From NCBI GenBank assembly GCA_021146325.1, contig GCA_021146325.1_4321.1: DNA of 45,885 bases; one strand, given 5' to 3'. A model generated the notes under the pieces. It did no database searches. It was not told the origin of the DNA and was given only the letters and a program-made list of their open reading frames with translations. The stretch comes from a phage. Shown here one piece after another: positions 98 to 517 of this stretch. The position numbers and the translations under genes were made by a program. Positions within the stretch are counted from its first letter, which is position 1, and each line of letters opens with the position of its first letter.

Positions 98-517
98 TCA
101 GAACGGAATGTCATCGTTAAACTGCTGCTGTTGCTGTTGCTGTTGCTGCTGTTGCTGTTGCTGTTGCTGTTGCTGTTGTTGTTGCTTCCCGCCATCGCCA
201 CGCTGACTAAACTCAAGTCTAGGGTTGTTCATGTTAATGGTTACGTAAGTTTTACCATCTTTATCGCGAACATCTACAGCCAAAGTTTCGCAACTTACGC
301 TAACGATTTTACCTTCCTGAAATGCCTCATCGTACCATGCAATCATTGATTCTTTTGCGAAGAAGACAGCTCGATAGTTACTGTAATGTACCTGACCATC
401 CTTGTCCTTGTAGCGCTCGCTTAAATCAACTGCATACATTTTCCATGTTCCGTTAGCATTCTGACCTTCTTTGGTGAACGGAGCACGACGGATAACACCA
501 GTGATTACGTGACTCAT
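98..517 (-). CDS. ssb: single-stranded DNA-binding protein with poly-Gln linker and acidic C-terminal tip
   Basis: 139-aa ORF; 24 consecutive Gln; C-terminus FNDDIPF matches the E. coli SSB tail DDDIPF. Confidence 0.8.
   Translation of the reverse strand: MSHVITGVIRRAPFTKEGQNANGTWKMYAVDLSERYKDKDGQVHYSNYRAVFFAKESMIAWYDEAFQEGKIVSVSCETLAVDVRDKDGKTYVTINMNNPRLEFSQRGDGGKQQQQQQQQQQQQQQQQQQQQQFNDDIPF
121..188. repeat. imperfect (CTG/TTG)n trinucleotide repeat, about 23 units, encoding the SSB poly-Gln tract on the minus strand
   Basis: direct reading of 121..188; the antisense poly-Leu ORF 131..349 is an artefact of this repeat. Confidence 0.9.

Follow-up and report, generated by a model that had tools for sequence, protein, structure and literature searches.

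Escherichia coli SSB (single-stranded DNA-binding protein) consists of an OB core, an intrinsically disordered linker of 56 residues and the acidic tip MDFDDDIPF. The tip recruits at least 17 partner proteins (PMC7145534). The linker is rich in Gln, Gly and Pro, and it mediates tail-tail interactions, cooperativity and phase separation (PMC7584906). In the SSB of Campylobacter hominis, a Q/N-rich segment of low complexity lies between the OB domain and the tip (Fleming et al. 2019, as cited in PMC8409284 and PMC7584906) and, according to the account given in PMC8409284, can form a prion in E. coli. Among phages, the closest known counterparts are the putative SSBs rtp49 of Rtp and gp27 of T1 (Drexlerviridae). 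They are orthologs of the protein studied here, with which they share the exo-Erf-SSB module, a Gln-rich linker and an IPF tip. No paper on the SSBs of the T1/Rtp family turned up in literature searches directed at phage SSB linkers that are poly-Q or rich in glutamine. We analyzed a phage DNA of 45,885 nucleotides (GenBank assembly GCA_021146325.1, contig GCA_021146325.1_4321.1; hereafter the window), in which an ssb gene encodes a long run of glutamines immediately before the tip. The original prediction had read this run as the product of a slippage-prone trinucleotide repeat.

The ssb gene and its protein

The gene occupies 98..517 on the minus strand (stop codon 98..100) and encodes a protein of 139 residues, MSHVITG...NPRLEFSQRGDGGK-Q21-FNDDIPF. 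Two further minus-strand genes lie beside it, one for an Erf-type single-strand annealing protein (558..1208, 216 aa from the ATG at 1208; PF04404, 9e-28; phrog_155, 8e-48) and one for an exonuclease VIII-like PD-(D/E)XK nuclease (1279..2250; PF12684, 2e-21; phrog_412, 2e-100). On its other side, ssb converges with a tail-fiber gene on the plus strand. The two genes have in common a bidirectional intrinsic terminator at 70..89, with an 8-bp stem that includes five GC pairs and T runs on both strands; this terminator is kept in the nearest relative (L001). The first 2.5 kb of the window matched 88 phage records, the best of which were Escherichia phages ES, AN_ECEAS and phiA2-1 at 87% nucleotide identity. 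The window gene is the ortholog of Rtp rtp49, which is annotated as 'putative single-stranded DNA binding protein, similar to gp27 of phage T1' and has the same neighbors, with genes for an Erf annealing protein and an exonuclease VIII-like nuclease upstream of it and a tail-fiber gene converging on it from the other side. The window is an Rtp-like coliphage (Drexlerviridae, Braunvirinae), and its ssb is part of a recombination module made up of exonuclease, Erf and SSB.

Several other features of the region were noted. The Erf reading frame called mechanically (558..1250) begins with GTG and encodes 230 aa; since the homologs are 216 aa long, translation probably begins instead at the ATG at 1208. 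The Erf C terminus is an acidic tail, ...SQEIDTF. The tail-fiber gene runs off the end of the window and finishes at 64..66 (43770..45885 joined to 1..66), and the window looks like a complete genome that is circularly permuted. Divergent genes flank an AT-rich intergenic region at 2540..2956, which contains tandem repeats ((ATA)5 at 2774..2789 and 9–10-nt repeats at 2749..2770 and 2830..2856) as well as two promoter-like sites and is probably regulatory.

PHROG 44 ('single strand DNA binding protein') matched the window protein over its full length (aa 1–139, E = 1e-29, 105 bits). The Pfam SSB model PF00436 gave no match to it at E ≤ 0.1, TIGR00621 scored 15.5 bits against a cutoff of 53.95, and Pfam scans of 31 family members returned no SSB match. 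A single-sequence phmmer search of the PDB produced only poly-Q noise (NDC1, an ataxin-3 chimera and Mediator). An exhaustive phmmer search with the OB part against 1.84 billion cluster representatives recovered only 65 clusters; 30 representatives of these, together with the window protein, made up a family profile of 31 sequences. Compared with the PDB, this profile found the SSBs 7f2n (1e-13) and 1eqq (8e-10) and the OB-only yeast Rim1 (2e-5), although part of the score against the PDB SSBs was contributed by the linker and tip rather than by the OB domain.

An AF2 model built on the 31-sequence alignment had a mean pLDDT of 87, with values of 94–98 over residues 1–100 and above 90 to about residue 105. 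The model is a β-barrel with one helix, and the tail that follows (pLDDT about 50) is predicted to be disordered. The best 50 Foldseek matches in the PDB were all bacterial SSB or PriB OB domains (E from 1.6e-5 to 2e-3), at TM-scores of only 0.4–0.55 and with 14–19% identity in the structural alignments. The tip, FNDDIPF (aa 133–139, 101..121, minus strand), is a look-alike of the host SSB-Ct: it aligns with ...PPMDFDDDIPF of E. coli SSB and is followed directly by the stop codon, which leaves a free C-terminal Phe. Conservation of its F-x-D-x-I-P-F columns is 90% or more in 31 distant relatives of 29–56% identity.

The evidence for SSB membership is mixed for the single sequence and good at the level of the family. 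Remote evidence supports an SSB-type OB fold for the N-terminal 105 residues (203..517, minus strand), a relationship that, we stress, is remote homology and not close membership. By profile, model and tip, the protein is therefore a remote SSB of the bacterial type, with core, linker and tip arranged in the canonical way; its linker (RGDGGK-Q21) comprises the 27 residues 106–132, encoded at 122..202 on the minus strand. The original prediction had placed the glutamine tract between an OB-fold region and a conserved tip. This position was borne out, with an SSB-type OB domain before the tract and a host-like FNDDIPF after it. The OB fold itself stands as a remote assignment, favored by PHROG 44, the family profile and the AF2/Foldseek comparison but not by PF00436 or TIGR00621.

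The resemblance to E. coli SSB extends to the three-part layout, to a Gln-rich, uncharged and disordered linker and to the tip (FNDDIPF versus FDDDIPF), and the family profile aligns end to end with the PDB SSB chains 7f2n and 1eqq. The OB domain, in contrast, is only remotely related (14–19% identity), and the linker is half as long as that of E. coli SSB and has only Gln where the latter has Gly/Pro-rich segments and PxxP motifs.

The glutamine run and its DNA

The run consists of 21 Gln (aa 112–132), encoded by 63 nt at 122..184 on the minus strand, directly before the tip; the 24 consecutive Gln and roughly 23 CTG/TTG units at 121..188 of the original prediction were overcounts. The homopolymeric run is real and far beyond chance, and it is the sole amino-acid run of more than eight residues in any real reading frame of the 45.9-kb window. 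Plus-strand reading frames over the tract would encode poly-Leu (131..349) and poly-Cys (108..206). These runs are other frames of the same DNA, so both reading frames were dismissed as artefacts of the repeat.

The tract was also expected to be a long perfect trinucleotide repeat, and here the sequence proved otherwise. Ten CAA and 11 CAG codons are mixed in the order AAAGAGAGAGAGGAGAGAGGG, pure triplet runs do not exceed three units, and the longest perfect period-3 array amounts to 3.7 copies. The longest perfect arrays in the tract have periods of six (CAACAG, 5.3 copies, 32 nt) and 21 (2.2 copies, 47 nt), and Tandem Repeats Finder reported periods of 6 and 21 and none of 3; the tract is an imperfect (CAACAG)n with a 21-nt duplication. 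Hairpin energies calculated with DNA parameters were only −3.7 and −4.0 kcal/mol for the two strands, compared with −11.2 and −19.8 kcal/mol for pure (CAG)21 and (CTG)21. The tract in the window thus has no long perfect array of one short unit, the hallmark of an unstable trinucleotide repeat or contingency locus. Interleaved CAA/CAG coding of poly-Q is genetically more stable than pure CAG. Such mixed tracts are found in eukaryotic TBP and in CAA-interrupted ATXN2 alleles, which resemble the window tract in their interleaved codons; the window tract differs in that it belongs to a phage of an enterobacterial host, is much shorter and has no link to expansion disease.

Linkers of related phages

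Searching 5.8 billion protein clusters produced 501 matches, of which the best 120 were 76–96% identical to the window protein and 134–161 aa long. We read these 120 and 50 further members of nine clusters; linker statistics were compiled on 163 sequences, with the linker defined as the residues after NPRLEFSQ and before the 7-residue tip. Every close homolog read has a Gln-rich linker interrupted by Pro, Arg, Lys or His and followed by F[NDE][DGS][DES]IPF. Linker length among the 163 homologs ranges from 17 to 35 aa and is mostly 27–32, so the 27 residues of the window linker are the modal length. The window departs from its relatives, including Rtp rtp49 and T1 gp27, in the continuity of its glutamines: its 21 Gln are uninterrupted, whereas all 163 relatives carry P/R/K/H interruptions, and the longest pure run is 3–11 in the homologs read and 12 in Rtp. 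The Gln fraction of the linker is 0.78 in the window and 0.45–0.69 in the homologs read. More distant relatives have Q/P/G/N-rich linkers of 20–120 aa, several with the E. coli-like motif GGWGQPQQPQ. Given its modal length and the Gln-richness that it shares with the family, the window linker is, by these comparisons, ordinary in length and kind and exceptional in purity only. An equally long but non-repetitive linker in related phages was the outcome that would have told against the original prediction; since the relatives' linkers are equally long yet likewise of low complexity, the comparison came out that way in one half only.

The interruptions themselves are informative. Across 129 distinct linker cores, Gln makes up 74.8% of residues, and 82% of the non-Gln residues are single-nucleotide neighbors of CAA or CAG. 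Pro (253), Arg (131), Lys (128) and His (78) are common, while Glu and Leu occur seven times each, which points to selection on composition; the mean core contains 2.0 basic and 0.06 acidic residues. This composition fits a Gln tract under constant mutation from which acidic and hydrophobic residues are weeded out. Because nearly all relatives keep Pro, Arg or Lys interruptions, a pure tract may be mildly disfavored rather than equivalent.

In the nearest relative, L001 (protein P0001), the OB-coding part of ssb is 99.4% and the exonuclease gene 99.3% identical to the window at the nucleotide level, whereas the linker plus tip is only 87.5% identical. Relative to L001, the window linker lacks one Pro codon and carries the substitutions CGA>CAA and CCG>CAG together with several CAA/CAG swaps. 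The interrupted linker of the P0001-type ortholog, whose OB domain is the same, reads Q7-P-Q6-R-Q-P-Q5. The body of the tail-fiber gene shows no nucleotide similarity between the two phages although both of its flanks align at 91–95%, which places a host-range mosaic boundary immediately beside the ssb terminator. Local hypermutation was considered as the sole cause of the linker divergence and rejected. The tip, the terminator and the adjacent tail-fiber gene diverge too, so part of the excess divergence of linker plus tip is likely due to this mosaic boundary. Separately, Erf is 90.8% identical between the two phages, less than the flanking exonuclease and SSB OB region (99.3–99.4%), which suggests a recombinational patch within the module.

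Linker length also varies where the OB domain does not. Identical 103-residue OB domains carry linkers of 25–35 aa, and one such set has lengths of 25, 28, 28, 30 and 32 aa. Three groups of metagenomic contigs have linkers that are codon-identical except for one synonymous GGT/GGC difference and a terminal (CAG)5, (CAG)4 or (CAG)3; the OB-coding DNA of the (CAG)5 and (CAG)4 groups is 99.4% identical. Such a (CAG)3/4/5 series, in linkers whose DNA is otherwise the same, is the trace that slippage classically leaves. Other pairs of linkers differ by 8, 9 or 10 Gln (seen at the protein level only), by 10 versus 11 Gln, by 7 versus 11 Gln or by one extra PQQ. In vB_EcoS-26174I and vB_EcoS-12397V (L008 and L009), the linker contains two copies of an 18-nt unit, CAA CCT CAG CGG CAA CAG, and one variant copy, giving QPQRQQ-QPQRQQ-QPQQQQ; the linkers of this family thus also grow by duplication of longer units and not by triplet slippage alone. 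In-frame variation in linker length, as originally proposed, is thus seen between related phages. It is not seen among near-identical isolates: four Veterinaerplatzvirus T145P1 assemblies and two vB_EcoS isolates have identical linkers, all of them interrupted and hence a weak test for a pure tract, and 42 of 43 records of the vB_EcoS isolates, which come from one host strain, share one genome length.

A change at the far end of the gene was seen in some relatives (L019, 2920–3404; proteins P0010, P0048 and P0123), where the ...IPF codon of ssb is followed immediately by an inserted endonuclease gene. The inserted gene encodes 142 aa (phrog_2340, 5e-40) and, from this match, probably specifies a homing endonuclease. 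With the insertion, the stop codon of ssb is replaced and the SSB gains 19 residues (a ASFGLQYGKHRIYAL-type tail), which leaves the canonical tip in an internal position. A distant relative of 47% identity (P0175) has a similar extension; the insertion is absent from the window.

Possible roles of the spacer

We consider it likely that the tract is part of the intrinsically disordered linker of a T1/Rtp-family phage SSB, in which a 27-residue spacer of low complexity connects the OB domain to the 7-residue acidic-hydrophobic tip. By analogy with the layout of E. coli SSB, the spacer is most likely a flexible, uncharged tether. It would let the tip reach host SSB-interacting proteins, and possibly the Erf and exonuclease of the phage, as the OB core stays bound to the single-stranded DNA that the neighboring exonuclease would make and Erf would use. 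The spacer may add weak Gln-mediated tail-tail contacts of the kind described for the E. coli SSB linker. Family-wide, it appears to be kept Gln-rich and to evolve fast through in-frame slippage or duplication of 3-, 6-, 9-, 18- and 21-nt units and through point changes, while selection would hold it at about 23–35 aa and remove acidic and hydrophobic residues. The window allele would be one outcome of this process, of normal length but with every interruption lost. The gene, its domain layout and fold class, the predicted disorder, and the composition and length polymorphism across the family are results of the analysis; the tether and recruitment function, the formation of tetramers and any effect of the pure poly-Q run are inferred. 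A pure-Q linker is an extreme form of the known low-complexity, disordered SSB linker and no new device.

An alternative is that the run acts as a tunable tether of the contingency type, in which high-frequency slippage within the phage population generates in-frame length variants that are selected under different conditions. We regard this as unlikely. Very close relatives do differ by in-frame units (the CAG3/4/5 series, 8/9/10 Gln, 7 versus 11 Gln, one PQQ), and in the window both the 5.3 perfect CAACAG copies and the 47-nt duplication of 21-nt period could misalign. The mixed codons, the absence of any pure triplet run beyond three units and hairpins of only about −4 kcal/mol argue in the other direction, however, as does the invariance of linkers in the T145P1 assemblies and vB_EcoS isolates and of genome length in the latter. 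Because all changes are in frame, the on/off switching of classical contingency loci would not arise. Finally, linker lengths in the family cluster tightly, most at 27–32 aa, which fits a constrained spacer; the distribution looks like stabilizing selection on a drifting spacer and not like adaptive tuning. We found no evidence for the tuning put forward in the original prediction, and this narrow range of lengths argues against it.

A second alternative concerns self-association: pure Q21 tails, four per presumed tetramer, could drive condensates or amyloid- or prion-like assemblies in the infected cell, with the possible consequence of concentrating recombination and replication factors or sequestering host SSB partners. 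Poly-Q aggregation usually needs tracts longer than 21 Gln, a point that already counts against such assemblies. Pro and basic interruptions, moreover, oppose aggregation and are retained in almost all relatives; the pure allele therefore resembles an exception not maintained by selection. A degenerate pattern of at least 14 Gln abutting an FxDDIPF tip found no match in IMG/VR or in JGI metagenome contigs, and the exact junction patterns of the window tract found none there either, neither as a second copy nor as a length variant. In favor of self-association, liquid-liquid phase separation of E. coli SSB is driven by its linker (PMC7584906), the linker of C. hominis SSB, rich in Q/N, is described in PMC8409284, citing Fleming et al. 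2019, as an experimentally validated bacterial prion domain, and the window linker is 78% Gln. Set against prion-like and poly-Q domains, this Gln-rich segment is only 21–27 aa long. The C. hominis domain is longer, and for it a heritable aggregate was shown experimentally, as those sources report, whereas the 21 Gln of the window are short. Self-association thus seems improbable. We think it equally doubtful that an uninterrupted Q21, in four copies per SSB tetramer bound to single-stranded DNA, changes the material state of the protein through stronger cooperativity, condensates or amyloid-like seeding. Were this so, the phage would offer a natural model of poly-Q length effects in a bacterial virus, and its relatives' P/R/K interruptions would be breaks selected to prevent aggregation.

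That the pure tract is an assembly or sequencing artefact, in which an interrupted linker such as the nearest relative's was collapsed or mis-polished, is very improbable: low-complexity DNA is error-prone, the exact window protein does not occur among 15 billion proteins searched and the closest relative has Pro and Arg interruptions at the corresponding positions, but the reading frame is kept through the tract, tip and stop are undamaged, the length is within one codon of the nearest relative's, 63 nt is shorter than any modern read, and the differences from L001 are specific base substitutions and one clean codon deletion, not a collapse.

With the tract read as a disordered spacer, the family offers a natural series of linkers that vary in length and interruptions on identical OB domains. 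This series could be used to test how the composition of an SSB linker controls cooperativity, condensation and partner recruitment. The pure Q21 allele of the window is the extreme point of the series and opens no new question alone. The practical value of the analysis lies mainly in annotation and context. The layout of OB domain, Gln-rich spacer and host-like tip is now documented across about 230 sequences, and the SSB of the T1/Rtp family escapes the curated models of Pfam and NCBIfam and is often labelled 'hypothetical' or mislabelled.

Several of the labels attached to homologs themselves look doubtful. In Escherichia phage ES, the SSB carries the label 'terminase small subunit'. Contigs of about 44 kb that encode near-identical SSBs are filed as Streptomyces lividans, Aeromonas veronii and Nitratidesulfovibrio liaohensis, and the record of 'Pseudomonas phage PsgS01F' has the same length and match statistics as that of an E. 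coli phage. Misannotation, or contamination of unrelated assemblies with coliphage DNA, is the likely explanation for these labels.
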